DNA of 53,160 nt, the filler included, from Sluysia triapertura (lineage: Eukaryota): the NCBI GenBank assembly GCA_046118255.1. It is 4 parts of 4 records of this genome, joined end to end, with 100 filler letters (N's around TTAATTAATTAA, not from the genome) between each part and the next. Parts side by side here need not be neighbours in the genome. Positions count along the whole stretch, not along the records: positions 1 to 19,177 come from JBJNIA010089791.1; 3 more parts are not named here. One strand, 5' to 3'. The position numbers and the translations under genes are program-made. The first letter of the stretch is position 1. Each line of letters begins with the position of its first letter. Shown piece after piece: positions 3,247 to 51,880 of this stretch. The notes below the pieces were generated by a model that saw only the letters and a list, made by a program, of their open reading frames with translations, made no database searches and was not told the origin of the DNA.

Positions 3247-3349
3247 ACAGAATTACAAAAAGAAAATGAGAGCATGTCAAGTGTCATAGTCCTCTTCGCA
3301 CTCTAGACCCATCATGACGTTGGATGACTGACTGCCAATGCCTTTACGT

Positions 3350-5748
3350 AGCTTGTTCAAAGAGAGAACTGTAACCGCGACTGATATCGACGTGTTTGTA
3401 TTCCCATTTGTCGTGTATTCTCAGCCAGACATGTAACAGAGCTGGAAGGTGTAGCAGTAGATGAGGAAAAAGAATAAAGTAAAGGAAGTAGTAATAAACA
3501 ATTTGGTAAAAACGTCCTACTTTGTTGCTAATAAGATCGTATAGCGTAACCATTTCTGTGGCAAATCGAGCACACGTCATTTAATAGTTTATGTAAAAGA
3601 AATGAGGTTAGGTTTGATAGATTAATAATCCAACACAGTCATAAGGAAGGTAAATCAATTTTATCTATTACGAGCCATGGATGAAGCGAGATCAGTATCT
3701 TGTCATGCATGTTTCCAAGAAAATACTGGCGGATGTCACCAGTATCGCATGGCTTTACTATATCATTCGGTATAAAAAGATCTTTTAAAAAAATTTAATG
3801 CTGTAAAGGTATTTGTATTTCATAAATTTCATAAATTATTTTTAATGTATTTAAAATATATTTTTATGTGTTAAGAATAAATTTAAAAAAATAAAAAATT
3901 TATAAGTGAAATTACCATTAAATATTTATTAAAATATAATTATTATTATTTATAAAATTATTAAATAATAATATATTATTATTAATATTGTAAAAAATAA
4001 AATTATTAAATTATTAAATACTATTATTATTATTAAAAGTTTGTTTAAATTCATGTTTAGGACGTAAAACATTCTATAAATAGAGTTTTCAAAATTTAAA
4101 AAACTCAATGGTTTAAAATTTAGGAAACAGTTACAGTTGTTTCAGTTTAAAAAACGCAGTCATTATTTATTTTAAAGAAAATAGTTATAACAGTTATTAT
4201 TTGCTTCAAAGAAGAATTCTGTCGTGATAGCTAAAATTTAAGGAATAAAAGAAGAATGTTTCGTTTGATTGAAATTTATTTAAAGCGATTATTAATTTTG
4301 TAATCGTTAGTTTTCTTTTATTAGGAAAAATTTAATTATATAATAAATTATACTTAAATTTAATTAAATTTTGGTAGAATTTAATACAATATAAATTATA
4401 AAAAGAAAAATTTTATACCTAAATATTAATTATAGATTAATATTGATTAAGTTTTTAATTTTAATTGAATATATTGATGGAATATTTAACATTATTAATA
4501 TTAACATTTTGTGACATTAAATTTTTGTAATGTAGGAATACAAAGTAATATAATAATACAGTTTTTATAAATAAATCTTCTTGTAATATCATTTCATTTT
4601 ATTATAATCAATTATACTATCAATTTATTATCATTTACATTATAGATCCTTTAACATCTTTTGATTTTATTGTAATCAGTTATACTATTAACGTTTACTT
4701 TGTAATTTTTAATATCCTTTGATTAAATGTACTATCAATGTTTGTCTTGTGGTTATTTCTTATCATTAAAATAATAATAATTGTTGGACCTAAATAAGAA
4801 GTTACATAAAACCAATCACATATATATCTACCTCCAGTTTTAATGTCTTTTCTTGACGTTGCAAATCTATGTGCTGGCCCCTCAGTGAGTAAGTCCAGTA
4901 TCATAGAGAATTCAAGAGCAAAAAAATAAACTAAGTAAAATAAAATCATCATTATTTTCTTACCGCAAAATTTCCACAATGCGCATGCGCATATGAATCT
5001 TGACTTCCGTGTGGTGTTGCTTACTATATGAAGTACTCACAAGAGGAATAATTTGCAGTTTCTTCTTGAAATCGAGGGTATGGTGGAACTCAATCAAGAT
5101 TAAACGATCCTCATCGTTGATCGAAAGAGGTGGCTCATGAGTATAAGAAGTATCTGTTGTACACCTTCCCAAATTGGCCCTATCTTTCTCGCATAAGTTT
5201 GGCAGGAAGGAAGAAGGAGGTGATACTTAAAAAGTGACTGAGCAGAATATACCTTGGCGGAATAAAGGGGGCCAGGGAGGGGAATGTCCCCTGGGAAGCA
5301 AAATTGATTCTAGAAAAATGGAAAAAGAAATAAATGTATAGTCAAGTATAGTGCTTTGTGACCATTCGTGGTAGTCGAGATCGAGGTCTTTCCCTGAGAA
5401 TATAACACTGAGAATATAACTCTTCACAATATGAAGAGTTGTGAACACGAGTACTCTTATGCTTAAAGGTGTCTTATTCCCCTCCAGAGTTACCTTATAG
5501 GCTTATCTTGCCACGGCAATATAAAGGGTCGTCAATAAATCTATTAACAGAAATTTCAAGTTTTTCCGGGGTTAACGAAAAAATGTGGATTGTTACGTTA
5601 ATCTCCAGTTCACTTTTCAATTTATTATCTGTTACGAGAGAAATATGACAAAATGTAGGAGTGGCTTCTCATCACAAAATCGATCGTCAGAAATATAGAA
5701 AGTTTTGAGTTGGTCGATAATTATGGCTTGTGGTGAAGACATAGCCAT
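3350..5748 (-). pseudogene. Decayed orphan ORF of LTR element, copy A (split by a ~1.2 kb insertion at 3768-4965)
   Basis: Translated pieces MAMSSPQAIIIDQLKTF, TDNKLKSELEINVTIHIFSL, AYKVTLEGNKTPL, SYTHEPPLSINDEDRL..TSYSKQHHTE, DTGDIRQYFLGNMHDKILISL..IINLSN and MTCARFATEMVTLYDLI align in order with the 40081-41389 ORF. Multiple stops and frameshifts. Confidence 0.75.
3768..4965. mobile_element. Unclassified insertion interrupting the copy-A ORF
   Basis: Homologous coding sequence resumes on both sides. Termini are imperfect inverted repeats (CGGTATAAAAAG / CGGTAAGAAAAT). No in-frame AG acceptor found, so it is not a clean intron. No TSD seen. Confidence 0.45.
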
Positions 5749-5769: not shown

Positions 5770-6190
5770 ATAAGTTTATTCTTGCGCCATTTTGATATTC
5801 TTACATAGTCACCAACTTTTTATTTGGGTTGATATTGCCACATTTCTATATATTTAGTACAATTAATATCTCTAGGTTTACATTCATCAAGTTCTGGGTG
5901 TTTATTATAATTGCACGTATCAATTATACTAGGTAGTATCTTAATTCTTTTTTATTATCTTGTTTTGTAAAATATTTTTTAATCTGTTTTTGATGGTTCA
6001 ACAAATACTATTTTAAATGGACTGAATAATGATTAAGTCCATACTTTTTTTGCATCTTTATTGTAAACCATTTACTTAAATCAGTTTGAAATTTTGTGTT
6101 TGTCGTTTTTAATTAATTTCGATACTGCTTCATTCATATCTTTACCACTCTTTGATTTAACTGATACTGCTCTTGCAAATCAGATGCCAT
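5770..6190 (-). pseudogene. Polinton/Maverick-type rve integrase relic
   Basis: Frameshifted translation FARAVSVKSKSGKDM..KFQTD..YNKD..KKYGLNHYS..KKYFT..ILPSII..KPRDI..PK*KVGDYVRISK matches the motif order of Polinton integrases. Confidence 0.65.
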
Positions 6191-6240
6191 ATTTAATTTG
6201 CACTTCCTTTTTCATATTTACTTAATGAAAATCTCCGTCT

Positions 6241-7410
6241 TGTTGAGATTAGTGAAGGTTAATGGCAAACATAAGGGTCAGGACTCAGGATAATAAAATA
6301 AAATAAACATCATTGAAGAATTAAGAAAAGGTATTATGTTGAATTGTAATGGCAAAATAAGCATATAAAATACGTAAATCAAAACAAAAGAATGAGAAAT
6401 ACGAAGAAATAACCCTTTAAAAGGTTTTATTTACTTTTGTTAATTAAGTTAATTAAAATTTGTTTAATTTGATAAGTCAATAAAAATGTTTGCTCATGAC
6501 ATGATATTAGATTTAGTATTTTTAATGATGAAGTATTACGAAGCATGTCGACGTAGAAAAGCTAAAAATTAGTTACTTTAATTAGTTTTCATAATTTAAA
6601 ATGAAAGTTAAATATGTTCCGATGTCCAAGTATATATCAAATTAATGCTCATAACGATACTAATTCAAATATATTATTGAACTTAACGTGCATCAACGTA
6701 CAGTTGATGCACAAAGCATGAGAAGTGAATTTATCATTACATTAATTTTATTTTTAAATTAAGTTGACAAATTGTGTTATGAATATAATAACAATTTAAT
6801 AACTTTTAATATAATATAAATTTTAATTAGATGATATTGAAAAAATAAGGGGATTGTTTACCATAAATCCCATTATCTTTAGATAATTAAAATGATAATG
6901 AAGTTGAACAAGGACGGAAATTGCTGTCGAAATTCAATCATTAAATTTGGTCGGCTTATTACCGACTAAAAGAGAATAGGCGGCATTAATTTCTGCCTTG
7001 CTCAATTTCTAATTTTTAATTTCCCAAATCGTCATAAATCTGCTATAAAAGTAGTTATATTTTTGCAAAAAATTAGATATAAAAAACGACGTGAAATAAA
7101 AGAAAAATTTCTAGCTATATGGACGCTGTTTCAGTTCATCAGTGGGTAACTGTGAAACTGTAGTTATTTCTTTAGCAATCAACTAAAATAAAATATTTTA
7201 GTATAAAATAAGAGCAAGGGCTATTATTGATTATATTTTGTACTAATACTAAATAATTAAAGAATAATTTGCATTGTTATTGTTATAAAGAATAATTTAT
7301 AATGCTGTTACCAATAATATTTTAGTTGCAATCTTGTGATAATATAAAGAATATATCGAGATTTGAATTTATTGATAATTTGAAAAATAAAAAGTATAAA
7401 ATACGTAACA
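6241..7410 (+). mobile_element. LTR family B, copy 1 (probable solo LTR)
   Basis: TGTTG...TAACA termini, TATA-like CTATAAAAG near 7043 and AATAAA near the end. Long reverse-complement homology with 35250-36290 and 12470-13820. No clean TSD. Confidence 0.6.
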
Positions 7411-10287: not shown

Positions 10288-11040
10288 TCAGCTACTTTCG
10301 ATAGGAATGGGTCTTCCAACAGTCAAATCATGAAGAGCTACTTTCACAGCTGGCGCTTCTATATACAATCGACCTCCACGAATATTGCATTTAAGTTTAT
10401 CCTGTTCTACTCCTTCTGGAATAGACACTACTTCGTGCAAAGTTCGTATGCTTCTACCGTGATCGGTATTTATTTCTTTTTTACCATCTACATAAATCAT
10501 ATTATCTTTGGTTCGTACCTGAATATTGTCACTATCAAAACATTTACCTATATTCATATAAACTTTCCATTTTCCTTTATCACCTTCATCTTGAATAAAT
10601 TCTGTTCTTGGTAGACGAACATGGTCTTGATTCATTACATGATTCATATATTGGTTCATTCTTTCCATCTCATTCCATATGCCATTCCAATCGTCAGTTC
10701 GTTGTAGTATAAATGGATTAAAAAACTCCGAACGAACACTTTTATAATTGGCTTCAAATTCAATTCCATGTTTAGTAAAAGAGTGACTTAAAGTATTAAC
10801 ATCGACATTCTGAGGCACATTAACGACTTTCTTAGTTTCACTAAAACATTCATCACTTTCTACTTTTTTGGCATGAATGATTATTTTAGTTTCATCTGCA
10901 GTTTTCTTTATATCAATTTTGATATCTTCAGCTCCGAAATCATAAAGTGTCACAAAATGCTTCCATTTCTCTCCTTGTTCTAAACCATGAAATGGTTGCA
11001 AAAAATTATCGTCCATAAATGGAACTAAATTACCAAACAT
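10288..11040 (-). CDS. Small heat-shock protein with two alpha-crystallin domains (p40/Tsp36-like), 250 aa, intronless
   Basis: Two ACDs (..VNVPQNVDVNTL..; ..FDSDNIQVRTKDNMIYVDGKK..VSIPEGVEQDKLKCNIRGGRLYIEAP) and a C-terminal IXI motif (PIPIE). Confidence 0.9.
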   Translation of the reverse strand: MFGNLVPFMDDNFLQPFHGLEQGEKWKHFVTLYDFGAEDIKIDIKKTADETKIIIHAKKVESDECFSETKKVVNVPQNVDVNTLSHSFTKHGIEFEANYKSVRSEFFNPFILQRTDDWNGIWNEMERMNQYMNHVMNQDHVRLPRTEFIQDEGDKGKWKVYMNIGKCFDSDNIQVRTKDNMIYVDGKKEINTDHGRSIRTLHEVVSIPEGVEQDKLKCNIRGGRLYIEAPAVKVALHDLTVGRPIPIESS

Positions 11041-11082
11041 TATTAAAATTACATAAAATAATAAATGATAGAGTCACAGTAT

Positions 11083-29280: not shown

Positions 29281-30745
29281 TTTATTAAAACTTTTCTGCA
29301 CATAAAACTTTTCGCGTGTACAATATTGATGTCTTCAATAAAATAAAACTGTGTATATTAATTAAGACTTGAAATACATTAAAGATTACCTTGAAATAAA
29401 ACCTTAATAATTAATATAGGTCAGTAAAATATATCAAACTAGATATGCGAAAAATAAGATGCCAAACTTCATTTTAATAATATTGTAATAATAATCTTGT
29501 AGTAAATTATAAGTTACAGTAATAGTTAAAAAAGAACAATTTGTATTAACCTAAATTTGTAGGTTATTAATGAAATATAACATTAACACATGAGGAAATT
29601 TGTAAGTGTTTAAAAATTAACTGTAAAATTATATCGAAATACTTAACGTACAAATTTAATCTTTTGAGATTGCATGTGTACGTAATATACATATAATAAG
29701 AATGTCTAAATATATTTTAAAAATATGTAATAAATTATTTCACTACTGTTAAATACATTTGCTTTTTATTTATCATTGGAAAAGTAAACCAAAACTCAGA
29801 ATTATTGTTGATAATTATTTTAGACGATATTGAGTCCATTTAGTTTACAAATTGCTGTGTATTATTGCTTACAATATCTTATTATTAACAGAGCTTTTAT
29901 TTACATGATTTATTCTAAGTTTTTATTAAATGGTATTTATCTCTATGAAATCGCAAAAAAGATAAGTTTTTACAATTTCAGCCTGAATCATTTCTGTGAT
30001 AATTTCAATATTTGTACTATTTACATCAATATTCTCTTTTTTTTCTATTATTTATCATTGTAGTGAACCCAAAACCGGTACATTACAATTGCGAATAAAT
30101 TCACAATCAAACACAAAATAATCTGTTAAACAAACTACATCATATCAAATAATCAAAGAATACATACAATTCTTATAATATTACACATTGTTAAATCTCA
30201 CCAGTTCCAAACAAAATTTAATTTCTATTTTTTACTCTATCTTTTATCATAATGTCGTGTTACTTCGTCGATTAATTCTACTATAGTAAAATATTTGGAT
30301 CCGTTAAGAGTTATTTATTAATCGCTAATGAACACTTTATTCGATAGCAGATGTAAGATCACTTTCTATCTTAATCTTATTAACGATATACAGCTTTTGA
30401 TCCAGCACCTAGTCATGAAGGAAGAATTATTATTATCATGTTATTAAGATTATAATCTAAATGTCATGTTACCATTTTCAAATCGAACCCGGACCCTCTC
30501 GTTGTGTAGATCGGTGATTAAGAAACATATATTAATATAATAGTTTGCTAGTGTTTTCTTAAACTTAAACTTATTCACTGCAAATTATCTGATGAGTCGG
30601 TTCGCCAAATATATACGCTTTATACCAATAATGGAGACGTATTATTAAGATTTAATATAATTCCTTAATTAGTGCTTAACCTAACACTCTTACTTACAAA
30701 CAGTTAAAATTAATTAATTAAATTAATCAAATTTATATATATATA

Positions 30746-30845
30746 NNNNNNNNNNNNNNNNNNNNNNNNNNNNNNNNNNNNNNNNNNNNTTAATTAATTA
30801 ANNNNNNNNNNNNNNNNNNNNNNNNNNNNNNNNNNNNNNNNNNNN
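30746..30845. other. Artificial contig-join spacer
   Basis: 44 N + TTAATTAATTAA + 44 N. Confidence 0.95.
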
Positions 30846-32024
30846 TTAACAATTTTATTGTAATCGTGTTCACTTTTATTTCGTTGGCCTAAAATATTTG
30901 AATAACATAATTACCATTAGTTCTTTGATATTATTAGTGTCTGTTGCGTCACTCCTGGTTGTTGTATTTTTAAAGAAATTGTAATATTTTCATTATTATT
31001 GTAATTGCTATTTTACTTTTGCTATTTTAGTTTCATTTTGTGAAGACTCATATTAATAATAATAAATTTTATTTTGGTTTTTATTTAATAGTACATTATT
31101 GGTTTTGTTTTGATTTGATTGTCAAGAAATTTAAAGTTCGTATAATAGTTATTGACATAGTTACAAAAGAAGATTACGATAAAATTATACTTGATATACT
31201 ATCTATTGAAATTATTAAGGTTTAAAACAGTCAAAATAATAATAGTGAGTCTTAATAATTCATAAGTTTTAAACACGCAACACTATCAAACTCTCCATTT
31301 ATTGATTTATATCTACGTGATTTTTTTGCATATAAGTTTTAAAATCTATAATAATATTAGATTTAAAATAGACTTAAAACCGACTCCTTAGGTATTTTGT
31401 AAGTTAAGTCTTTAGAAGTAACACTTGCATGTACATAAAAAATATAACTATTTTTAAAAATTTCATTCACGATAGTTATGTGAGCAGTAAGCCTAAAATG
31501 AATAAATTGATTTCTGTCTTTAACCCATTTAATTGACTTTTTGTATTCAAAAAATTCATATTTATACTATTTTATACCTATCCAAATAATGTAACTATAT
31601 TTTAAAAATATATTTATATTTTTCATATATTCTTATTATTTATATTCCTTTGAAAGAATTGTAGCATCTAAATTTTATAAGATAAAAATCAAGCAATAAT
31701 AATGTAACAAGCTTTACGTAAGATAAGCATATTAAGTTACAGATGTGCTTAAATATAATATAATTTTATTTTGTATATTTTTTATTAAATATTTTTATTA
31801 ACTTGCTCTTTAAAAATTTTGTTTCCGGTTTTAGTTCGATTGCTAGATACATTTTAAAATCTAAACTAAAAAATACTTTTAATTGTTAAAATTATATAGA
31901 TTGCATAATTGTATATAAATTTAATTAGTGTTATCATTTATAACTTTTAAGAATTTTGATGTGCATATGTAATATTTTATTTTAATTTTGTAATTTTAAA
32001 TACAGTTTTAGTTTTATAAATTTA

Positions 32025-34542
32025 ATGTCTGTTGATACATTTTCATCTAGAGGTTCCTTACCGAAGAGACCAAAGCCTTTTACAGGTTTTTTGCATTTTC
32101 AATTTAATAAATATTTTAGATACCAGTTTTAATCTCGCCAATTTTGAAGCGAAATGGTCTAAAGTTGTAATTGAAATAAGAAATATTTTTAAAAGTGAAC
32201 CAGTATCACTTGGATACACGAATCTTCTTAGAGTAATTAAATTAATAATATAAATCTTTTTTAGATTATCAGATGTTTTGATGGTGAAATTTGTGGACAA
32301 ATATTTGATAATTTGAGGAAATTATGCTTGGAACACGTTAATCGGTGTGCACCTGCACTTTATGAATATCCTTTTATCATTATTTTTATTATTTAATTTT
32401 TATATATTAAATTTTTCCTTAACTACATTATTTACAGATAAAAATACTGATTCAAAATTTCTAACTCACATTGATAACAGTTGGAAAGATTATTGTTCAA
32501 AAATGGAAGTTCTTCGACGCTTGTTTATGTACATAGATCATAAATATTGGTCAAGTAATCCAAATTATATTTCATTTTGGGACATGACAATGCGTTTATG
32601 GCATGATATGTTCATTTCTACAAATTTATTAAATAAAATCGTCGTACTTAATTTGAGACAAGTTCATGCTCAAAGAAATGGTAATAATGAATATTTAGAA
32701 TTAACGAAATCTATTGTTAATATGCTTAAAAGTTTGGATCTTTATAATAAGTTTTGGGAACATAAATACATGGAAGAAGCATGTCACTTTTATTCTAAAG
32801 ATTGTGAAATCAAAATGAAGGAATTACCTGATGTGCGATATTTAAAATATGTGATGAGCAAATTGGAAGAAGAAAAAGTAAGGTCAAATGATTATTTAGA
32901 GGGAGATAGTATCAGGATTCAATTTCGTGATGCTTTGATTAATATTATTTTGAAGCCACAATTAGATACTTTATTGGGTGTGTTTTTTAATGGCATTATG
33001 AAAGAAAATGACTTAGATAATTTAAAGACACTTTATAGTGTAACTGAATTAATATACGCTAAGCCTAATGAATTTACCGGTATTAGTTGTTTACGAAGTC
33101 ATTTTAAAAATTATATTATGAAAGTTGGATTAACAATAGTGGAAAATAGTGGAGATGATGTTGAAAAAGATAAAAAAATGACACAGCAGTTATTAGATTT
33201 AAAAGATAATTTAGATAAAATAGTCGTTGAATGTTTTAAAAACGATTTAGTATTTCATAAAACTGTACGAGATTGTTTTGAAAGCTTTGTAAATTCTCGT
33301 CCTAACAAACCTGCTGAATACCTGGCAAAATTTTTGGATTCTAAGTTAAGATCTGGAAATAAAAACTTAACTGAAGAAGCAATGAACATAATTATGGATA
33401 AGGTAATGACATTATTTCGTTTTATTACTGGTAAAGATGTATTTGAAGCCTTTTATCTAAAAGATCTTGCAAAACGATTGTTAATGGGTAAAAGTGCTTG
33501 TGTGGATACAGAAAAAGCAATGCTGGAAAAACTAAAGCAAGAATGTGGCCCTAATTATACGCGTAAAATGGAAGTAATGTTTTCTGATATTGAAAACAGT
33601 CAACGACTAAGCTCTCAGTTTAATAAAAGTCAATCTTTGAAAACAGTTTTGTCAGAAATAGATCCTGAAAGTCCTTACAAAGATGCTGAAATGAGTGTTC
33701 ATGTCATTTGTAATGCAACATGGCCTAATTTAGGTGGTTGCAAAACATTAAATTTACCAAGTCCATTGTTGAAATTACAGGAAGCGTTTTGTCAATTTTA
33801 TAATAGTGCTCATACTGGTCGAAAATTAATTTTTGAACCTCATTTGGGTACTTGTGTAGTGCGTGCTTATTTCCCAAAAGGTAGGAAGGAATTACAGGTA
33901 TCAGAATTTCAATGTATGGTTTTAATGCAATTTAATGGCGAAGGAGAAATAAGTTTAACTTATCAACAATTAGAAGATGCGCTGAAAATTGAACCAGAAG
34001 AAATGAAGAAAACTGTTCTTTCGTTGTCGGTTGGTAAAGGTCAAAAAGTGCTTTGTAAGAAACCAATGGTAAGTATTCAAACAATTCAAATTAATATAAT
34101 TAATTTAGACTACTGTTTTGGAATCAACTGATGTTTTTACATTCAATGAAAATTTCCAGCATAAACTTACTAAAATAAAGTTTAATCAGATTCAAACAAA
34201 AGAAACGGTTAGTATTTCAATTCATTTATTGTCATTATGTACACGTAACTACAGAAAGAAGAGCAACAGGCGACCGAAGAACAAGTATTTATTGATCGGC
34301 AATCGCATTTGGATTGTTATATTGTAAGATTAATGAAGTCTCACCGAAAATTGGAACATACAGCTTTAGTAACGGAAATTTTAAAAGAGGTGCGATTTCC
34401 GGTGAAGGTTAGTGCTTAATTTTATAAAGAGTACTTTTAAATTTAGGGAGCGGATATAAAGAAACGTATTGAGCATTTGATTGAAAGGGATTTTATGTCA
34501 CGAGATTCTTCGAATCCTAGTCTTTATCATTATGTTGCTTAA
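32025..34542 (+). CDS. CUL4: Cullin-4, 751 aa; exons 32025-32085, 32120-32232, 32265-32365, 32436-34068, 34109-34207, 34255-34407, 34447-34542
   Basis: CUL4-type motifs [54 protein letters not shown], neddylation site IVRLMKS and C-terminal [18 protein letters not shown]. All seven exons splice in frame (2256 nt). Confidence 0.95.
32366..32435 (+). other. U12-type (minor spliceosome) AT-AC intron, 70 nt, CUL4 intron 3
   Basis: 5'ss ATATCCTTT; branch site TTTTCCTTAAC ending at 32423, about 13 nt before the terminal AC. Removal restores the frame (TAT GA|A GAT AAA). Confidence 0.93.
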
Positions 34543-35249: not shown

Positions 35250-36290
35250 TGTGTGTGTGTGTCTAATACTTTTATTTTTCGAAATTATTAAACTAAAATT
35301 CGATAACTAAGTAATTCAAAATCTCGATATATTCTTTATATTATCACAAAATTATAACTAAAATATCTTTTTTAACGATACAATTTATATTAACAATAAA
35401 AATTAATCTTTATAACAATATGAATTATTCTTCAGTGACAAATGTGTCTTTTGTACTTTTTTTATTTTTACAAATTATCAATTAAAAACTCAATAATTAA
35501 ATAAATTCAGAATCTCGCTATATCACATATTTACAACTAAAAAATATAAATTATTCTTTAAAAACAAATCACAACCAGGGGTGACACAACCTATTCAAAT
35601 ATTAATACAAAAATATAATCAGTACAAAATAATTCACTAACTTTTATTCCTACTTTATACTAAACTATTTGATTTTAAAGTTGATTGCTAAAGAAATAAC
35701 TTCAGTTCCACTGTTATCCATTTATGAACTGAAGCAGCATCCCTACAGCTAGAAAGTTTTCTTTAATCTTAATTCTTATCTATATCTCTTTTCTGTTTTC
35801 TAACTTTACGAAAAAAGGTAACTGCTTATATAGTTCTTTATGATGCTTTTAGGAAATTAAAAATCAGAAATTGAACAAGATAGAAATTAAAGCTGTCTAT
35901 TCTCTTTTAGTCGGTAATAAGCCAACTAGTTTTACTGAATGAATTTCGGCAGCAATTCAATCTCATTTTTATTATCTAAAGATGATAGGATTTGTGGTAA
36001 ACAATTCCTTTATCTTAATATCACCTAATTAAAATTTAAAATCATTGTTACATTGCTTTTATAATAATAACGCAATTTGTCAACTTAATTTATCATTAAA
36101 ATTAATGAAATAATAAATTTATTTCTAACAAGAGTATTCTGCATTAATATGTTGTGCGTTACCCGTACGTTGCACATCAATTCAATAGCATATTTAACTT
36201 TAATTTTAAATTATAAAAATTGATTAAAATAACTAATTTTTACGCTATCTTCGTTAACGTGCTTCGCAATACTAATAAAATCAATAATAA
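35250..36290 (-). mobile_element. LTR family B, copy 3 (truncated)
   Basis: Extended reverse-complement match to about 6530-7400 (e.g. TTGATTGCTAAAGAAATAAC, TATTCTCTTTTAGTCGGTAATAAGCC, ATCTCGATATATTCTTTATATTATCACAA). Confidence 0.65.
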
Positions 36291-36299
36291 TACGAAAAT

Positions 36300-38125
36300 A
36301 TATTAACTATAAATTGAAAATCTTCGCCCGAAGGCAGTAAATACATAATGATTTTCATACAAAATTTGTTTTTGTTTTTTGTTTGTTAGAGTATGAAGGG
36401 ATCAATTAAATATTTAGAATGAGAAATCACATCATTGATCATTAGCAGTTGTTGGTTCTGGGGCAGGAACTGACACTGGATCCAGACTTAGGATTGGTTG
36501 TTGGATTGTAGCTGCTGTTGGATTTGGAGTAAGGGCAGCATCACTGCGGCGAAGTTTTGAGTACCGCAAAAGTACGTGATTAACGTAGATACGATATGAC
36601 ATCTTCACCATATCCGTAGAGATATCTACCAAGAGCTTGTTAATACCACATTTGCTGAATTTGAAGTTTTTAAGAATACTTACATTTTCGGGGTTCATTG
36701 TGCCAAGTATGGGAAATTTTAACTTTACGACGAACAATTTTACTTAGATATTGAGAAAAAGGTGAATATTTTAAAAAAATTTCTTTTGTGAATATTAGAG
36801 TAAGAATGAATTTTGTCGAATGGGGTTTTAACATCAATTAAGAACACTTGTCAAATTTACAGAGTAAGTCAGGGCGTTGCCGTTAATTTCATCAAGAACA
36901 TCAGAGCGCTCTGAACATCACAAGTGATGGGGTGAGCAGGGATTGACACTTCAAGGATTGCCAACGATAGAAATGAGATAGCCCAGTTAGTTGGTAGAAA
37001 GCCTGGGTAAGGTTATCCTTTTCATCCCTTGTGAAAGAATAAGAAGTATCTTGAAGGGAAAGATTGATAGAAAAGGAATCTTCAGCAAAGGCAATCAAAA
37101 CCTGAATGTTATGTTTAGATTTCAATGCTTTACAATAATCCCTAACATTGGCCCAAAGCGTAGATTTAGAGGGATACCAGAGAGTCAAGGGTTGTAATAA
37201 AGTCAGGATTCCGAAAGTATAGTTTGGCATCTAATTTAAGGTAATCAAGAGAAAAATAGCGTAACGTTTTATCAGTGGAGGTAAAAATTCTGCAGCAGTG
37301 AACTACTGTCTGAATTAAGTATTCACTGTGGAGGGAGGTAAAACCAATACCTCCCAAGTCAACAGTGGTGTAGAAGAAGTCAATAGAGGTAAAACGAAAA
37401 TGTATTTCAAGGACAGGTCGAAGAATGTTTCTAAAACTCCTATCAAAGGAGATAATATCATTAGAGTGCATTTTTGCCTATCTAAGCTGGATTCTTAGAA
37501 TTTTACATGCTCTAAAACGATAAGGAAATCGTGAAAGTATAAAGATTTTTATTGACCTAATTTTCTGTACTGGATGAAGGCGAGAGTTTTAAATCTTTGA
37601 ACAATAAGAGAGAGCAGTTTGAAGTAGATATTTTATTGATAGATATTTAGCATTACCAATTTTTGAGCCGAGATAGGTGTAGTGATTTTTAGAATCAATA
37701 ATAGGAACTGGAATGTTATAAATACTCAAAGGTAGTTCTACATTTTTCTTAAGAGTATTCAGATAACCACATTTATCAGGGCGAAATTTCAGATTGATGT
37801 AAGAATAAATAATAGAAAGTTCATTTAAAGTATATTGTCTTGATTGATAAGAATCAGATACAATCATTATGTCATCAGCAGAAGTAAGGCAGATAAAGGA
37901 ATATCCTAAATAACGAAACGTAGAGATTTCACGAATAACAAATCGAAGTAAAGGTTCAGTAGCAAGGCAGAAAAGAGTCATAGATAGGGGGCAGCTTTGC
38001 TTAACACCAACTTTAACTGGAACAGGATTTGTGACGCCAAGAGAGTAAGTACAAGAATTATAACTATATAGGTTCTTCAGTAATGAAAGTGTTGGTTTTT
38101 GTAAGCCAGAATTTTCAAGCAACCA
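36300..38125 (-). mobile_element. 5'-truncated, decayed non-LTR retrotransposon with C-terminal restriction-like endonuclease (NeSL/Utopia-like)
   Basis: RT motifs GVKQSCPLSMTLFCLATEPLLR, SADD (for YADD), KC, YTYLG, LGGIG. RLE motifs RPDLL..LIDVKTPFD and LGTMNPEN..DMVKMSYRIYVNHV. Many frameshifts. Confidence 0.85.
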
Positions 38126-39389
38126 AAAGCATTTGAATAATCATTCCAACAAACAAACAATGGAGATCTTGGCACGTGAGTTATGCTAGCTTGTAAAATG
38201 GTTTCAAATTCAACATATCATACCGCATTCAAAAGTTATTCACGAAAACGTACTTTTTCTTAATTGAGTTAAGATTTTAATTAATTAATATATTTTTAGA
38301 CTGAATATTATTCTATATTTAAAGGTTTTAATAAGGTTCCAAAGTTATTTAGTAATTTAAAAGGCATTCAGGAGGCTCTAGATGTTTTCACCTTTACCTC
38401 TCTGATTCCTTTTTCTATTTATTCATGTTTATTATTACCACATTAAACTTATCTTTATTATTTTGAACAAAGATTTTATATTTCAAACATTTTGATGATT
38501 TTATACATTTTATAATATTACTCGAATATCTTTGATGCTTAAGGTTTCCAGAATACATAAAAATTAATGGAGTCTTAGATGATATCAAAATTAACAAGCT
38601 CAAGGGTATTCTAATGCCTTCAAAGATTTTTAAAGTCCATTTCAAGCCTCCACTATGTCTCGACACCTTATATAGTTCTTTGGAATATCAAGGTATTCTT
38701 TAGCTGTTATAATTATTATAGATTTTTTATTTTCATGATTCTTTTTCCAACAATGTTTATAATTTCAATCTATCACTTTGTATCAACTCTTTCTTCACTT
38801 TGTGATTCTATGTTTCTTACTAATATCCTAATCCACAGTTGGACAATCTCAACATATCTCATTCCCGACAAAATTCTCTGACCGCTGACAATACGATAAA
38901 TTATACTGTTTGTGAGAGTCCAACAGCCTTAACACTTTACATTATTATTCAATAATCCGTAACACTTTATATTATTATTTATTGTGATTATACATTTATT
39001 ATTTAATTATGATTTTATCATTTATTTAATTTTATGAGTAAAAAATTATTATGTAAAATATTATTGTAAAAAATTATTAATTAAAATATTAAAATATTAT
39101 ATTGTAAAAAAATTAACTAATTAAAATATTATATAATTTAAATAAATATGATTTAAATAAATATGATTTAAATAAAAGTTATTTTTGTTTAATAATATTA
39201 AATTATTTTTGTTTAAATGAATTACTTTTGTATACGTGTGAGCAATATGGTGATTGAAGACAATATTGGGTATAAAATCCAATGAATTTTGTGGGTTGAA
39301 CACAATTTTGTCGTCAACAATTTGTTGCTCACCAAACTTCGAATCAATTCCATGAAAATGGTAAGTTTCTTTTTGATAAGATTTTTAAT

Positions 39390-39766
39390 CTCCTCACCGT
39401 AAGAAGGGAGGAGTAAACTAATACTTAAATTAATTGTGTATTTTTTGTACTTATACCGTAACCGGATAAGTCAAATTGAATTTAAAATCTTATAAAGCTA
39501 AATTCTTTAGAATTTAAGCAATATAAAATAGTTATTTTTATTATAATTAATTGTGTATAATTGATTTTTAGTTATAGTAATAAAGCTTCCTATGTTAAAT
39601 TGTTCTTTAATTAATCACTAAAGTCTTATAAAACGCTAGACCGTAATAAGGCTAGCTTAATATTATAAAATCAATAATTGAGTTTTCAATAATTAGACCG
39701 CAACAGGCTAATTTAACATTTTTTATTAACATTTTATTAACAAGTTAGACCGTAAAAAGGCTAACT
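39390..39766 (+). other. Array of five covarying bulged-A stem-loops (stem-A-CC-GYAA(N2-3)-GG-stem)
   Basis: 39390-39413, 39449-39471, 39635-39656, 39691-39713 and 39743-39766. Each has a different but perfectly complementary 5-6 bp lower stem. Confidence 0.85.
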
Positions 39767-40080
39767 CAAAATCATTAAGTTTAAAATAATTTTAATATTT
39801 TAAATAAACTAAAATTATCTTCAAACGATCCTTATCTTATCCTTTGTTTGATTTTATTTTGCACAGTAAATAATAACAGGCCGCCGTCGTTCAGACTTAA
39901 GTCGTTTTGTTAGGTCGAATTCTTCTAGGCTTATTTGCATTGTAGGTTAGGTGAAACCAAATCGTCTTTGCAGTACTAAGGTACATTATTGTATATAAAA
40001 AATTACTTTTTAATATTTTTCTTTTATTTTTTTATGAATTGTCCTCTTTATGTAAACTTTAATTATTCTTTGTAATCCAG

Positions 40081-41389
40081 TACACACCAAACCAAAACAC
40101 CACAAGCAAGAACCATCAATCAAGTCAAAGTCTTTTACTCTTCCATTGATAAGTTATGCGTCGAAAATACTACACCTAAATTCCTTCCTAACTCGTTTGC
40201 CACGGACTGTAAATTAAAGTCCGAACTAAATGATAATGTGGCAACCCACATCTTTGCTTTATCGTCAGAGGTACCTTTAGTTTCTCTACAAGGGTTATCC
40301 AACGCACCTGACGAATTCGACACAATGTCCATAGTAGCTGCGCGCGGGGCGATTAAGGTCACTTTAGAGTTCGAAAAAATCCCTTTGTTGTTGCGCCTCG
40401 AAAATCATTCAACTTTCCATCTTTCAAATTTATCTAAAAATTGTAAGGTTATGGTAGAATTTCCCACTCATCTTGCTTTTCTCTACTGCTCTTTTCGCTC
40501 CTTCTTTCCTGCCGTTTGCTGAGGATCTCGACAATATAAGTAGATGGAAAAAACGGTTCCTCATATACGCATGTTCCTCCTCCTTCCGCGTATGATGAGG
40601 ATGGACTTATGTTTGTGGCGTTCCAATATGCCACAGATTTCTTAAATAACCCACAATTGATTTGCGTGACCTGCACTTCGTACAGTCGTCAATTCCACAC
40701 CGAGGCTCGCATAAAACCTCGATGCCGCATCCAGAATTTCCGCCGAAACATTCAGGTGGTTACAGATGTCGACGACATCCGGCCTCAGATCATTGGGATC
40801 CTTCGAAACAAAATTCTAGTCTCATTAAACTCTAAATTTCTCATTGAGACATTAAATATTCCTTTTGGGCTACTACGTGGGATAATAAACTTGTCCAATC
40901 ATAACTTGGTTCCGTTTTCCACAGATGATATTTTCATTAGAGCGCGCCAAACGTTGCGGCTCATTTTTCCAGTTTCATCAGTGTTAACATGCAGGCAGAT
41001 GGCCTCAGAACTGGTGACCCTGCTTGATTTCATTAGGGAGCGAGACTTGCAATTAATTTCTCGCTGTAATAACCCTCTACCCGTTCTATTTAAAAAACTG
41101 TCCACCATCCCTAATCCTGCTTCTAAGCTTTCTTCTCCTCCTCCAAAAAAAGGCAAAACTCACCCCTTCTTCCTCTACTTCTTTTTCTATTTTTTCTTTA
41201 ACTTCACCATCATCTACTCCATCATCGACCAAACCATCCACAATTACATCATCAAAAATTTCGCCATGTACTAATTTACCAACGACGGCAGCAAAATATC
41301 AGGAATTACGAACAATATCCCCACAGAAATTCCGAAACGATAATGGCACCCAGTGTCTATTCAGATACGACTACTTACTTCAAGATTAG
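40081..41389 (+). pseudogene. Orphan ORF of LTR element, copy B (~430 codons, about 3 frameshifts)
   Basis: Includes track ORFs 40238-40522 and 40609-41274. Protein-level homology with copy A throughout. A frameshift in the A7 run near 41145 gives PPPKKAK and a Ser/Thr-rich tail ending in TAG at 41389. Confidence 0.75.
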
Positions 41390-41721
41390 GACTCAGTAAT
41401 AATAATGTGATTTATTATAATAATAATTTTTTTTACTGACAACGATAATAATGTGATTAACAATAATAATAAATTTTTTTTATATTCGAGGACGAATTTT
41501 CCTGAAAGGGAAAGTAATGTACATATGTAAATTATTTTTATTTGTGTTTTTATATATGTGCTATTTTATAAATATTATTATTACTATAATTAAAATATAA
41601 ATTAAATAAATATTATAAAAAATTAAATAAAGATTAAACAATATAAAAATATAAAATTAAAATAAATTAAAAAGAAAATAAAGTAATTTGTTTAAATAAA
41701 GTAAATTATTTAGTTTTAGAA

Positions 41722-41821
41722 NNNNNNNNNNNNNNNNNNNNNNNNNNNNNNNNNNNNNNNNNNNNTTAATTAATTAANNNNNNNNNNNNNNNNNNNNNNN
41801 NNNNNNNNNNNNNNNNNNNNN
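41722..41821. other. Artificial contig-join spacer
   Basis: 44 N + TTAATTAATTAA + 44 N. Confidence 0.95.
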
Positions 41822-42503
41822 TTAATCCACAGTTTGAAATTTATTTGCTAAATAAATCTTAATGGGGGAAATGAAAAAGCCGGTATGAAAATTTAAAACG
41901 AAAATGTATTATTTATAAGAAAAGTTGCAATATCTAAATTAGGTGAAATGTAGAATAAAACAATAGTAGTTTTAAATTTTTGTTTATATTTATGATATTT
42001 ATTAGTTTTGTTTTAATATTTATAATTATATTTTAAATAATTTGAAAACGATTTAAAAAATAATTAAAATTTTGAAATGTATTTTAAATTTTCAAAGCGT
42101 GTTTGATATTGAAGAGCATATTTTATTTTTAGGTTTTTATATTTTCTATATTTATAAATTAAAATATATTGTTTTATTCGATGATCCAACACTTTCATTT
42201 TATTTATTATCTTTATTTTATTTATTATTATTGTTATATACAATTATTTGGTGGTTCAAACATTTCATTTAAAATTGCACTATTTCAAATATTACAAATT
42301 ATTTAAAATAAACAAAATATGCAATCACGTACAGACTTAGCACATCAACATAAAAACCACTAAAAACCTAAAGTCAAACACTGTTTCTATAAATGAAATT
42401 TCTATAATAACAACTTCTAAATGTTCTTTATACTTTTGTTATTTTGAGACTTTATTATTATTATTATTATTATTATTGTTATTGTTATTATTATTATGTT
42501 ATA

Positions 42504-44190
42504 CTATAGTGGGAATAGGTTTTGGTCTTTGTTTATTACAGTTTGTCGATTTACCTTTTCCTTTGTGGTTAAACTCTTTGTTATTTCGTCTATTTGTTCT
42601 AACTTGTCTTGATTTTTTAATTTATTTTTATCATAATTCTGTTTAACAACATTTCTAATTTCATTAATTAATTCTCGTATCTGATTATTTTCATTATTCT
42701 TAAGTTCATCATTTCCCGTTGCATTATCATTTTCTAATTCATTTAATAAGTCATAGAAGTTTGGATCATCGTCTAAGTCTACTAGTTCTTCGTCAAATGT
42801 TACATTTTGATTTCTCTTCATGCCGTAGTTGCATTATTTGGTACGCTTTTAATTGGACTTTTACTTATTGATTCATTTTCTTTTTTATTATCATTGCTTT
42901 TTTGACACCATTCTTTTTCATCTCTTCTTTATTTTGTTCCTTATCTAACTTTTTTTCAAGCCGCATCCAAAAACTTAAAAAGGGTCATAATTTAGGGGGT
43001 GCGGTTTATACGTTGATGTTTAAAATCCTCAAAACTTCCTGACTCTAATAAATAAAAAATGTCATTTTTAATGCAAAGTCCTATTCTAATAAACTATCTC
43101 GTCATTGTGCGATATATTTGTTTAAATATTATATTCCGCAGAGTAACCAGGAGAGTATTTCTAAGTAGATTTATTTAATACAGGGACCAGCATCTTAGCT
43201 TTTGTATTTTAATGGTGCGGCTTATACGTCAATTACATTTTCTGAAAAATATTGGGAATGTGCGGCTTATAGTCTGGAAAGTACGGTATTTGTTTCTTCT
43301 ATTATCACTAATATTTCTTCCTTGGGGTTTTCTCCAATAGGATAACTGCAGGCTACAATTATTTTCACCGTCATCTGATTCTTGTTTATTATATAATATC
43401 TTTATTTGCATACCACAACAATTAATTTCATTCTTAATTTTATCTATAATGAATCCTGCAGTCGTATGAATATGTCGTTGGATTTCTTTTGTTTCGTAAG
43501 GTAATTATTATTATTATTATTAATATAAATAATTCAACCTAATTTTTTTTGTCTTACATATTTACCATAACTCTTTAGTATAGCTTTTGCGTATTTCTTT
43601 TCGTTTTCATTGAAAAGGTCTCTTATAATTTTTAATAGAGTTTCCGTTTTGCTAATATCTACACCTTCTGTTGCGTATTCCCTTAAGGCATTAAGTAATT
43701 CTCTATGTCCCATACTCTTTTTTATGATTTCTTTTGTATCTTCTTGAGCGGTATGCCTAGTTTCTTCATCCCCAACGGATGCTCCTGCTACTATTGTATT
43801 CATTTGCCCATCATCTAACTGACTCCTTGTTTCTTTTTCTTCTTTGTCTTTTTGATCTATCTTTTGTCGTTGATACATCGTGTACCATTCCTTGTTATCC
43901 ATTGTAACAAAGTTTCGCACTTGTTCCATTTCATTATTTTCCAACACATAAACATGATTTCTATCTAGCGGAAAGTTCGTAGCGTGATCTGGCAAGCTCT
44001 CTCATAATGTCCATATTTTTTTCTATGATTGCAATATATCCTAACCCTTATATCTACTTTATTTCTGTCGGAGGAATTTTGAAATTTATCTCTGTAGTCA
44101 TTATGTGGTCAAACTTTAAGAAATCGATTTATTTGACTGTGTGTAATCATACCTTTGTGGTGAATTGTCTTTACGTATCCACTTACGTAT
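42504..44190 (-). pseudogene. Decayed gag/ORF1-like coding region with degenerate CCHC zinc knuckle
   Basis: CNHRKKYGHYERAC at 43992-44033 fits Cx2(C>R)x4Hx4C. It is followed by charged helical ORF fragments (43534-43995, 42504-42821) and interrupted by a pogo-like element. Confidence 0.5.
42950..43288. mobile_element. Non-autonomous pogo/Tigger-like element
   Basis: Terminus reverse complement TA|CCGTACTTTCCAGACTATAAGCCGCAC. Internal repeated TGCGG(C/T)TTATA motifs at ~43000, 43216 and 43261. Left TIR degraded. Confidence 0.65.
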
Positions 44191-47600: not shown

Positions 47601-50386
47601 ATCGATAATACAGAAACTACAAAAGAAATACAAAATGTTCAATTAATTAAAAACTTTAAAACAGAAGAATCAGAAGACGAAAATCAACAATATTCTACAC
47701 CACCTGTTCCCAAAATGAATATAATTGAACCTATAACAAACTCTCCAGCTGGTGATAAAAAGCAATTAGAGAATTCTGAGCAGAAACAATATGATACTGA
47801 AGAATCAGTGCCTGAATATCATGAAGGGGTAGGTTTTATGAATGATATTTTCTATACATAATAAAATTTAAATAATAAAATTTGGGTTAAATAGTGCAAA
47901 ATTAAAATAAAACATCTTTTTATCGCTAATAAAATCAAATAATATTATTAATTAATTAAATTTAATTAATTATTAATTATTAATTATTTTAAATTATACT
48001 TGTTAACCATAAACATATTTAGGATATCTTTTATTTTTTATAAATTTCGTATACGTTTAGAAAATATTTATAATATAATATATGTAATATGTACTTATAT
48101 TTGTTATAAATTATGTATTCAACAGCATCTTAATCCCTTCACTTAGTTATTAAATGGTTGAAAGTAAATTAAAAAATAAAATTACAATTTTACATTAACA
48201 TTGCGAAAATAAATTTTAAAATTTTTTAATGCATACGAATTTTAACTTAAAATAAAACAATTTTGTAAATAATTATTTAGTAAGATTCCCAAATAACTAC
48301 ATTCCTGAAAAAAACATAAGCTCTAAAAATCAACTATAAGTACTATAAATCAACAATAGTACATAGGTTATTAATGCAAAAATTTTATTTCAACTAATCA
48401 TATTATTTTTAGAATAATTTTGGGCCCTTTTTTTAAAGGAGACGATCATAAATGAAATTTCTCAGTACCCAACAGAAGTATTTTTAGAATTAAAACAATT
48501 TAATACGATATAGTGGATTAGTTGTTTATATTAAATTTTATAAATAAGTCGATTGTGTATTTTTAATACAGAAAATGCTATTAAAAAACCGAATTAATAA
48601 TAATAATAATTTGAAAATCAAAGAAAAATTCAAATTTATAATTTTCGGTAATACAAACAACTATAATAAATGAAATAATTAAATAAATAATTAATTTTAA
48701 GGCGAATCTCTGAGTATGGAATATCGGTTGTAAAAATAAATATAAATTGTATTTTCTAAAATATGTCAATACCAATCATTTATTTATTAGTAAAGACAGA
48801 GCAAATTTAATTGTGCATTCAGATTATAACTAATAAAAATGAGTAAACACAAATGAATGTCATTACTGTAACAATTTATATATAACATGTCCTATGTGGT
48901 AATAATAAGATAAATAATAGGTTGCACATTGTTTAAAAAATATACGAGATATACTAGAGAATTAGAAGATTATGAAATTTTTAAGAATAGAAAGTACTTT
49001 CTACTTCAGAAATATTATAATTAATGATGTATTTTATTTCAATGATTTTGTAGTACTTATTACTGACTTCGGGCATAGGTCAACGTCAAAATTGCATACC
49101 CTGAGTTAATTTGGGCAGCTTTGTTTTTGACTTCGAATTAATGCACATGTCCAAATTAGCTAGGTGACGAATCGCAACTTGAATAACATGTAAAAATAAG
49201 TTTAATGCATAATACCTAGTATTTTATGATATATATTTTTTGCATTTATTACATTATATTTATTTTCATTATATTCTTAATTTTAAAATAATAGAGGTAA
49301 TTTCTTTATTTCTTAATATTCGTTTTGATAATTTAATTATAAAAGATAATTTTAGTTTTGTTTGCTGCCACCAAAGAGATAGAAAGGAAAAAGTAAGGCT
49401 TGAGTCACGCTACCATTGTAGTTCATTAATGTTGCATTTATATGAAGGTACAATCTTTTATTAATGTAAATTTCCTCTATTAACTTATTCTGAAAGTAAT
49501 ATCTATATTTTATCTTTTTGTTTACCTTACCTGGAAGTTTGAATTCGAATACTCGTCTCAGTTATTCGAGATGAAAGTTCTTAACAAAAGTTCTACTACT
49601 TTAAAATTTATTTATTTAAAAGTGTTGCATTGTGTGCAGAAATTTGTTTTATGGTTTACCATATTTAATTCTACGTTATACAATATCGATAAAACCTAGC
49701 AAATAAAGTTTTTTTATTCAATTAATATTAAATTTCCATTTTTAACCTAAAACCTCTTTTTTTCTTTTTATTTTTGTGACTTCTTATAAGTCTAGGCTAA
49801 AAAAGTAATCATGGTCTTGTCGAAAAAAATCATGCGTCAAGTGATTCACTGATTAATGATACGAAAAGTATTCACATTATTGAATTTTCTAAACAGAATG
49901 AAAAATAAATAAAATAATTATTTAATAAATTAATTTCATCTTAAGATGTTATATTAAAAAGTAAAACATTTTAGCAACAACCAAATACATCTGAAAATAG
50001 TATAATTCAACAAGCGACTGTAATAATTCATACACAAGATACACAACAAAACCATGCAGAAGCAATGTTGCCAGATCAAATTAGTCAAGATTCAAAAAAA
50101 TCACAAGAACCAGAAGAGGCAGTAGCTTTACAAGAACTAGATCTGGCAATAGCCCATACTGAAGATGTCGAAATTGAAAATCAAAACAATGACGATGATA
50201 ATGGGAAAAAAACAGAAGAACAAGAACAAGAACAAGAACGAGAACAGGAAGAAGAGCTTCTACTGGCTTCTACAAATATAATACCAATACGTGAAAAACA
50301 AGAAACGGAAAGTAAGGAGAAAAGCAATGATGAAAAAGAAATTTGTGACAGTGAATGTGAAACTGATAATTTAGATAATAATTCTA
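47601..50386 (+). CDS. Two exons (47601-47828, 49975-50386) of an acidic, E/Q/N-rich low-complexity protein; partial
   Basis: AG/GT-bounded open frames with a phase-0 join (..YHEG|QQPNTSEN..) and similar composition. The second exon ends A|GTAAGT or at TAA 50394. Start and end exons not established. Confidence 0.55.
49443..49620 (+). repeat. ~180-bp near-identical direct repeat, copy 1 (copy 2 at 51702-51880)
   Basis: TGAAGGTACAATCTTTTATTAATGTAAATTTCCTCTATTAAC...TTTATTTATTTAAA present twice with few differences. Confidence 0.9.
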
Positions 50387-51701
50387 GTAAGTAATAATAT
50401 TTTATAATAAATTATCCAATTATTATATTATACATTAAACTATACTGCGTCACATTATATTTCTGCCTTTGTTATTACATAATCTGCATTTATGTATAAT
50501 ACAAATCCTATTTTAATTTTATTAAGTATTCATGTTATAAAAAAAATTATAATTATTGTTACATAATTATTATTATTTCTATAAAAATTATAAATCACTT
50601 AAAACGTGCATATAATACAAAACAAAATGTGGTATGTTGTATTACATTAATTAAATATTAATTTTTAAATATTTAAATTATTATTATTACTCAATTAAAA
50701 TCACATTATTTTTCTCATTGCATTTAAAAAAGTAAATTTAAAAAACTAAGTTTATGTTTTATATTCTAAGTTAGATTTCAAGTTACAAATCAAACATTAT
50801 TATTTACTTTTACATAGTGTTTTTATGTCTTTATTGCTGAAATTTTTTTAAAAATTAAAATCATTTCCTAAAATAATTAAATTAAAAAAATTATGAATTG
50901 AAATTTATGCTGAATAAGCTTAAATCATTTGCTTTTATTTTGTTTATAAGTACTTAAAAGTATCAAAAAGTTTAATAATAATAAACATTAATAATAAAGT
51001 ATTATTTTTAATTTCTGATTTAAAGATAATTCAATAATTGTTCTATGAAATTTTACAGACATTTTTAAGGCGAAGTCATGTTCAATTTTTTGAAATTTAA
51101 ATTTAAATTTATCTTTAGTGATTAAATTTAAATTTATCTTTAACTTTAGTACAATTAGTAAGAATAAAAAATACACAAAGTTTTAAACGTATTAATTATA
51201 TTTAATGTATTAAATGATTTAATGAAAGTATGATTAAATCATTCAATCTAGTAATAATATATCTATTTTCGAAATAGATTTTGTAACATTTTCAATAAAC
51301 TCTAAAAATTGAAAATTTTATTACTGTTTATTATTATTAAGTTTTAATTTTTGAATCATTATTTTTATAATAGTAGAAGTAAAAACTGAAATAATTATTT
51401 AAAGTATTGGATTTTAAAATCTAATAATATTGATTAAATACTTTAAAAGAATTGTGTGATAATATGATCTACAAAATTTATATTTATTTTTTATTTTATA
51501 CTTATATTTTATATATTGATATTTAATTTTATTATTAAAATCTAAATAAAAAATATAAATGTGATTAATTAAATTTAATTAAGTAATAATAATAATATAA
51601 TTATAGTATATATGAACATGTTGAAATGAACTCTTAGTCTCTGATACTAATCTAAACTTCTTCAATATTATTCTCACTTTATATCACTACTTAAATTTAT
51701 C

Positions 51702-51880
51702 TGAAGGTACAATCTTTTATTAATGTAAATTTCCTCTATTAACTAATTCTGGAAGTAATATCTATATTTTATCTTTTTTGTTTACCTTACCTGGAAGTTT
51801 GAATTCGAATACTCGTCTCAGTTATTCGAGATGGAAGTGCTTAACAAAAGTTCGACTACTTTACAATTTATTTATTTAAA
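51702..51880 (+). repeat. ~180-bp near-identical direct repeat, copy 2
   Basis: Matches 49443-49620. Confidence 0.9.

Follow-up and report, generated by a model that had tools for sequence, protein, structure and literature searches.

A highly repeated, decayed gene of Sluysia triapertura with a probable DEDDh-type domain devoid of catalytic residues

Results

Architecture of the two gene copies

The stretch of DNA analysed here (the window) comprises 53,160 nucleotides, filler included, of AT-rich DNA from Sluysia triapertura (GCA_046118255.1), and all coordinates run along this joined stretch. Two decayed copies of one gene lie in it on opposite strands, 35 kb apart in window coordinates: copy A on the minus strand (5748-3347) and copy B on the plus strand (40081-41389). 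Translation and a tblastn comparison of 39800-41500 with the window gave five collinear minus-strand matches running from 5736 to 3521, and the copies share 112 identities over 262 aligned codons, in seven collinear blocks spanning the gene. A 57-residue block, which runs downwards from 5148 on the minus strand in copy A and upwards from 40561 in copy B, contains exactly the 28 identities counted in it by an earlier, sequence-only reading of this DNA, with a tblastn E-value of 5e-12 over 65 residues at this block; each of the sequence matches quoted in that reading was also found at its position. The homology that it proposed between minus-strand fragments and 40081-41389 is therefore retained, but the three pieces it described become at least six in copy A, and 40081-41389, which it had taken for a single ORF, consists of four open stretches whose frame changes at three breaks.

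Copy B starts with an N-terminal region whose fold is unassigned (40081-40519), matched pairwise at E 2e-5 by the N-terminus of the intact relative P0001 described below; no ATG lies ahead of the conserved part in its frame. A linker in another frame, with breaks on both sides (40458-40548), was delimited by comparing translations with the fourth piece of copy A, and leads into the DEDDh-like domain without catalytic residues (40549-41067), which was defined by Atlas, profile and pairwise comparisons. In the translated tail (41068-41389) a basic patch, which we take to resemble a nuclear localisation signal, extends across the break at 41145-41151 and is followed by a Ser/Thr-rich stretch. The first of the three breaks falls in the interval 40430-40497, while the second (40548-40553) and the third (41145-41151) each coincide with an A-run. 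A public-run contig identical to 41058-41512 also has the third break and shows it to be no assembly artefact, provided that the run is not itself the source of the window.

In copy A, whose coding pieces are all on the minus strand, the reading is broken by in-frame stops, by three or more changes of frame and by a 1.17-kb interruption. The first piece (5635-5748) opens the N-terminal region at the first ATG, 5748, and shares 13 of 30 residues with copy B 40097-40186; the second (5525-5662; TDNKLKSELEINVTIHIFSL), in a different frame, shares 21 of 46 with 40172-40309; and the third (5230-5502), homologous over 5502-5428 and ending in an in-frame stop, shares 12 of 25 with 40349-40423. The fourth piece (4963-5226; 29 of 63 identities, ungapped) covers the linker and then the exonuclease-like domain in its first half, with the SYTH block. 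Beyond the interruption (3795-4962, minus), the fifth piece (3612-3794) carries the second half of the domain with the motifs DIR..G...KIL.SL and IINLSN and one in-frame stop (19 of 45 identities to 40765-40899), and the sixth (3347-3580), aligned to copy B as protein, completes the domain with its last helix (TCARFATEMVTLYDLI) and continues into a decayed tail. Within this tail 3491-3445 matches copy B 41175-41223 as DNA with a score that none of 300 shuffles reached, by a margin of one point.

The interruption is missing from copy B and has 18% G+C, compared with 36-39% in the coding pieces. It begins with GTAAGA where homology ends, a hexamer present at 31 sites in the window when both strands are counted; near its other end TTTACAG ends at 3801, out of frame, and no in-frame AG occurs near the right end. 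The interruption may be an intron or an insertion, and we keep both as alternatives since GTAAGA stands at the end of homology but TTTACAG is out of frame.

Flanking sequences and other features of the window

The DNA upstream differs between the two copies. Copy B follows a highly repeated, non-coding leader on the plus strand (39637-39980) with three TAGACCG...AGGCTA units (39637, 39694, 39746), and a putative 100-nt GT-AG intron (39981-40080, plus), proposed from the sequence only, separates leader and gene. The summed contig depth of the leader is 10,800-36,600 over 39700-39967, its segment 39880-39975 is very highly repeated, and the depth drops sharply at the leader end, near the putative donor at 39981.

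Copy A is abutted by a decayed, frameshifted coding relic on the same strand (5780-6200), recognised in translation, which breaks off about 30 bases before the first ATG of the copy. From its motifs we assume that it resembles a Maverick-type integrase, an identity that Pfam, NCBIfam and viral contigs did not confirm. Upstream of copy A there is also a non-coding repeat of about 1.1 kb (6273-7369, minus), with further copies at 35313-36297 (plus) and 13363-13799 (plus) of approximately 70% identity by blastn. Each of the three repeat copies leads into a different sequence, and a palindrome is located near 6690-6710, inside the copy at 6273-7369. A fragmented reverse-transcriptase element (36432-38140, minus; RVT_1, E 1e-7) adjoins one of these repeat copies, and its relic at 37592-38140, on the strand opposite to copy B and 2 kb from it, is the sole reverse transcriptase in the window. 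A search with Rfam gave no match in the window.

Elsewhere the window contains two intronless small heat-shock genes of approximately 230-250 codons (895-1629, plus; 10288-11073, minus), 27% identical over 215 residues. Their products exceed one crystallin domain in length and are possibly two-domain proteins; the best solved relatives of the small heat-shock protein are animal crystallins. A cullin gene occupies one very long exon (32317-34131, plus; Pfam E 4e-140). Past the gap after copy B, open stretches of 90-155 codons belonging to no family are found on the minus strand (42507-44108), possibly another decayed orphan gene. A recent duplication of 185 bases (49436-49620 and 51695-51880) is 96% identical, and three different tandem duplications of 77-80 bases are clustered at 17091-17781. 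The largest apparent repeat families of the window were rejected as artefacts, being gap N runs around the TTAATTAATTAA spacer (19176-19280, 30744-30848, 41720-41824 and others).

Evidence for purifying selection

The sequence-only reading had also claimed that the gene was once conserved as a protein. Over the 262 aligned codons the copies differ at 118 first, 76 second and 169 third positions, instead of the even spread over codon positions expected under neutrality. This pool includes a seven-codon block probably read in the wrong frame of copy B and part of a block in which copy A is frameshifted; its blocks were furthermore chosen by protein score, and for this reason the ungapped 63-codon block was tested separately as an unbiased test. 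There the differences number 25, 17 and 41 by codon position with 29 identities, while 20,000 neutral simulations gave a mean of 17.2 identities and a maximum of 26, and none reached either the third-position excess or the 29 identities. As second-position differences are rare and third-position differences common, beyond all neutral simulations, these data demonstrate past purifying selection on the gene, in agreement with the claim. The position bias is present in the N-terminal blocks as well (43, 30 and 62 differences in 101 codons).

We estimate dN at approximately 0.5, whereas synonymous sites are saturated (dS 2.1 by NG86 for the 63-codon block and undefined overall, with maximum-likelihood values of 13-19 that are not meaningful), so that dN/dS between the copies is bounded only roughly, at 0.25 or below, rather than measured precisely. 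The antisense frame that shares third positions retains 27 of 62 identities; it was rejected as the coding frame, being interrupted by stops in copy A as well as copy B and requiring that first positions carry the fewest changes.

Further support for selection comes from an excess of synonymous variants among other copies in the public run X1, where 40 of 354 variants were listed; 37 of these could be classified and 3 lie outside the frames. In the C-terminal frame of copy B, 14 of the 22 listed variants are synonymous compared with 24-32% expected (p 0.002), or 13 of 21 when one site upstream of a frame break is dropped (p 0.005). No selection signal is seen among the listed variants of the N-terminal region (3 of 9 synonymous) or of the tail (1 of 6). 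Five of the seven amino-acid-changing variants from other copies carry the residue that is present in P0001, whereas the residue of copy B agrees with P0001 or copy A at one of the seven sites; the changes in copy B are thus mostly its own decay.

Repetition of the gene family

In the one public run that contains this stretch, 1,554 of 6,252,256 records match copy B and its flanks (39700-41700): 127 contigs at 99% identity or more, 285 at 95-99%, 493 at 90-95% and 649 below 90%. The family is therefore abundant and highly repeated, and as 1,142 of the contigs are less than 95% alike and 649 less than 90%, its description as old and abundant in the sequence-only reading is well founded. Over the C-terminal domain the summed depth rises to 15,000-20,000 in the first half, compared with about 18 for fully identical contigs; summed contig depth is not copy number, and a rough guess would be hundreds to about a thousand copies. 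Some public-run contigs connect the domain to the downstream flank, and internal deletions are frequent.

Many dispersed and diverged copies, the general mark of mobile elements, are thus found here, and we consider a mobile-element origin of the gene probable. Neither copy could be linked to a transposase, an LTR, terminal repeats or target-site duplications, and within the window no direct repeats surround either of them. In the scanned flanks, which are decayed, neither a Kolobok transposase nor terminal inverted repeats were found, and the packaging ATPase, protein-primed polymerase and capsids of Maverick/Polinton elements were not seen; Pfam likewise detected no polymerase, capsid or gag-pol beside either copy.

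A single intact relative

Among 1.84 billion representative proteins, a HMMER search recovered a sole relative (E 9.5e-9), P0001, an intact protein of 365 amino acids from a single contig of 1,964 bases. It is 25% identical to the C-terminal domain of copy B over 171 columns and matches the N-terminal region more weakly, and the two matches together indicate that both halves belong to one protein. The gene, which had been described as an orphan, is not fully so in view of this intact relative and of its probable DEDDh fold, although just one relative was found. Word-index searches covering 190 candidates of similar length and 726 longer ones gave no homologue, and when alignment was used only P0001 was recovered among 2,949 candidates. 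Viral contigs, metagenome contigs and plasmids contained no relatives, and the annotated phages gave one chance match (E 2) and no relative. Pfam returned nothing for copy B or P0001 and PHROGs nothing meaningful. For the N-terminal region of copy B no family was found (Atlas 0.76); a dUTPase-like assignment, suggested by eye, was not supported.

A probable exonuclease fold

The C-terminal half probably adopts a DnaQ/RNase T-type (DEDDh) fold, as judged from four sequence comparisons, each of them weak alone and none reaching a family cut-off. The Atlas grouped the domain of copy B with eukaryotic RNase_T clusters at 0.91, with 27 of 30 matches in one set and a shared-feature count of 161, below the 170 typical of true family members. 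For P0001 the sole NCBIfam match was a DEDD exonuclease model (E 0.076), and in the PDB a single entry matched, the exonuclease domain of PolC (2p1j; E 0.77 and 0.3). A DnaQ-type profile was built from 11 domains of bacteria and phages, 8 of them phage loci and 3 chosen from five E. coli domains. Against it the P0001 domain scored 15.1 bits, compared with at most 0.6 bits for eight other sequences; copies A and B are among these eight and score no better than unrelated proteins. The comparison of profile with profile gave E 0.0011, a score as high in none of 100 column shuffles, and an hhalign probability of 20%. The similar stretch covers about 90 columns, and the same stretch was aligned in the NCBIfam, PDB and DnaQ-profile tests. 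The strands and helices predicted for P0001 196-364 fit the DnaQ order; both structure models are poor (pLDDT 35 and 42). Three fold searches (PDB, viral and VIA libraries) returned no exonuclease, an absence that is not evidence there. The closest DEDDh type is presumably the compact eukaryotic REXO/ISG20 one, as the eukaryotic Atlas clusters also suggest.

Catalytic residues

DEDDh enzymes require the motifs Exo I (DE), Exo II (D/E) and Exo III (D and h), according to the parts of PMC7968707 consulted. At the Asp column of Exo II the profile alignment places Ile in P0001, Leu in copy B and Val in copy A. The D and E places of Exo I are occupied by Q/A in both P0001 and copy B and by H/T in copy A, in a register deduced from the end of the first predicted strand and not from the hhalign alignment. 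The His and Asp of Exo III are both missing in copies A and B in the two registers considered, and P0001 keeps at most one residue, a His in one register or a Glu in the helix-set register, the alignment confidence at Exo III being low. With these residues absent, the protein is not a member of the active DEDDh family, and since the intact P0001 also lacks the set, its loss likely predates the decay of the copies. P0001 177-365 contains no cysteine, so the EHHCHC set of Maelstrom cannot be present and the protein is not Maelstrom.

Discussion

The gene described here is, on balance, best understood as an accessory gene of an unclassified mobile element that encodes a catalytically dead DEDDh protein. 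We predict that the protein binds nucleic acid but does not cut it. In the least certain step of this reading, we tentatively propose that the element captured a host 3'-5' exonuclease, that the captured enzyme lost its metal-binding acids with retention of the binding groove, and that the protein could then have served the element by gripping nucleic-acid ends; by analogy, it would most likely have protected RNA or DNA of the element against trimming and silencing by the host. Selection would have acted during the active period of the copies, most of which, A and B among them, would have decayed afterwards. A more specific proposal, which we regard as unlikely, is that a transposon-encoded Maelstrom-like pseudo-exonuclease acts as a suppressor of piRNA silencing, either by capping element transcripts at their 3' ends or by jamming the host enzymes that trim small RNAs; the dead DEDDh domain would then have been kept under selection across old subfamilies.

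If a dead DEDD nuclease was indeed maintained by purifying selection in a family this abundant, the implication would be that the element kept the fold for binding, the same step from a cutting to a binding fold that was taken by the host piRNA factors Maelstrom and Exd1. If the gene was merely decayed cargo without such a role, the present assignment is still of use for annotating a large family of repeats.

Among the alternatives, an expanded host gene family, in which a lineage-specific pseudo-nuclease comparable to Maelstrom or Exd1 gave rise by birth and death to many duplicates and retrocopies without being the cargo of any element, would agree with the intron-like GT...AG ends of the copy A interruption, with the putative 5' intron of copy B and with the failure to tie the gene to a mobilising enzyme, and DEDD pseudo-nucleases are known in hosts (PMC5408684, PMC2628886, both in part). 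Such a family is nevertheless improbable in view of a depth that exceeds the value for identical contigs by a factor of hundreds to a thousand, of the repeated flanks on both sides and of many internally deleted copies; both copies in the window are broken, and one relative in 1.84 billion proteins would be odd for a conserved host gene. A relic gene of an endogenous virus-like element, either Maverick/Polinton or a Burro-like giant LTR element, seems just as improbable. The relic that we take to be integrase-like does abut copy A on the same strand, and the coding pieces have about 36-42% G+C within a window that is mostly at about 20-30%; however, the integrase reading found no confirmation in Pfam, NCBIfam or viral contigs, no relative of the gene came from viral contigs or annotated phages, and neither copy has a polymerase, capsid or gag-pol beside it, the region upstream of copy B being moreover different. 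Captured accessory ORFs are borne by Burro elements (PMC6431247, in part), in favour of the latter type of carrier.

The protein might also derive from a DEDD nuclease and still be an enzyme, its active site having been moved or replaced as proposed for Maelstrom. Conserved acidic residues cluster close to the first strand (DED, DED, EE) and in a D..D/E helix, and the Exo I and Exo III registers are of low confidence, but the conserved acids do not align with the catalytic columns, and no Cys/His set is common to copies A and B and P0001, the domain of the last being free of cysteine; we consider this quite improbable. A chance resemblance to exonucleases in a protein of different fold, for which one could invoke the blank fold searches and the lack of any test passing a family cut-off, is hardly to be expected when a DEDD exonuclease is the top or only match in each of four different libraries and the NCBIfam, PDB and DnaQ-profile tests align an identical stretch.

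The proposed dead accessory gene of a mobile element can be compared with several known systems. With the DEDDh (DnaQ/RNase T, PF00929) exonucleases it shares the profile similarity of about 90 columns and the predicted order of strands and helices; it differs from them in lacking the Exo I, II and III residues, in falling below every cut-off and in being fused to an N-terminal region without known family. KolobokD, an animal DNA transposon, likewise bears an accessory DEDDh protein; its domain, which is presumed active, is TREX/ERI1/exuperantia-like, whereas no Kolobok transposase was found near the present gene (PMC9587614, in part). DEDD exonuclease genes were also captured by bdelloid LTR elements and Terminons, whose DEDDy ORF3 has intact catalytic residues (PMC5408684, in part), and by Dada transposons, whose exonuclease keeps all four (PMC3706591, in part). 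According to these sources they are of the DEDDy type with residues kept and stand in a gag-pol or transposase context not seen here, whereas our gene is DEDDh-like with residues lost.

The planarian giant LTR elements Burro and GYPSM1 resemble the present family in their high copy number, captured host-like accessory domains and decayed fragments; the available parts of PMC6431247 include no exonuclease among those domains, and no LTR or polyprotein is linked to our gene. Those of PMC11161782 describe no free-standing dead exonuclease in Polintons. In the literature searched, with most subscription papers, Repbase and supplements outside its scope, we found no report of an animal mobile element on which a catalytically dead DEDDh gene is amplified.

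The closest parallel to the loss of catalysis is offered by Maelstrom (PMC2628886, in part) and Exd1 (PMC5408684, in part), DEDD-type folds of the piRNA pathway that lack the DEDD residues and are thought to bind RNA. Both are host genes, whereas the gene studied here is highly repeated, mostly decayed and without the EHHCHC set. Transposon-borne DEDD nucleases with residues kept or presumed active are thus already known, and the new element in the present case would be a dead DEDDh domain on a mobile element.
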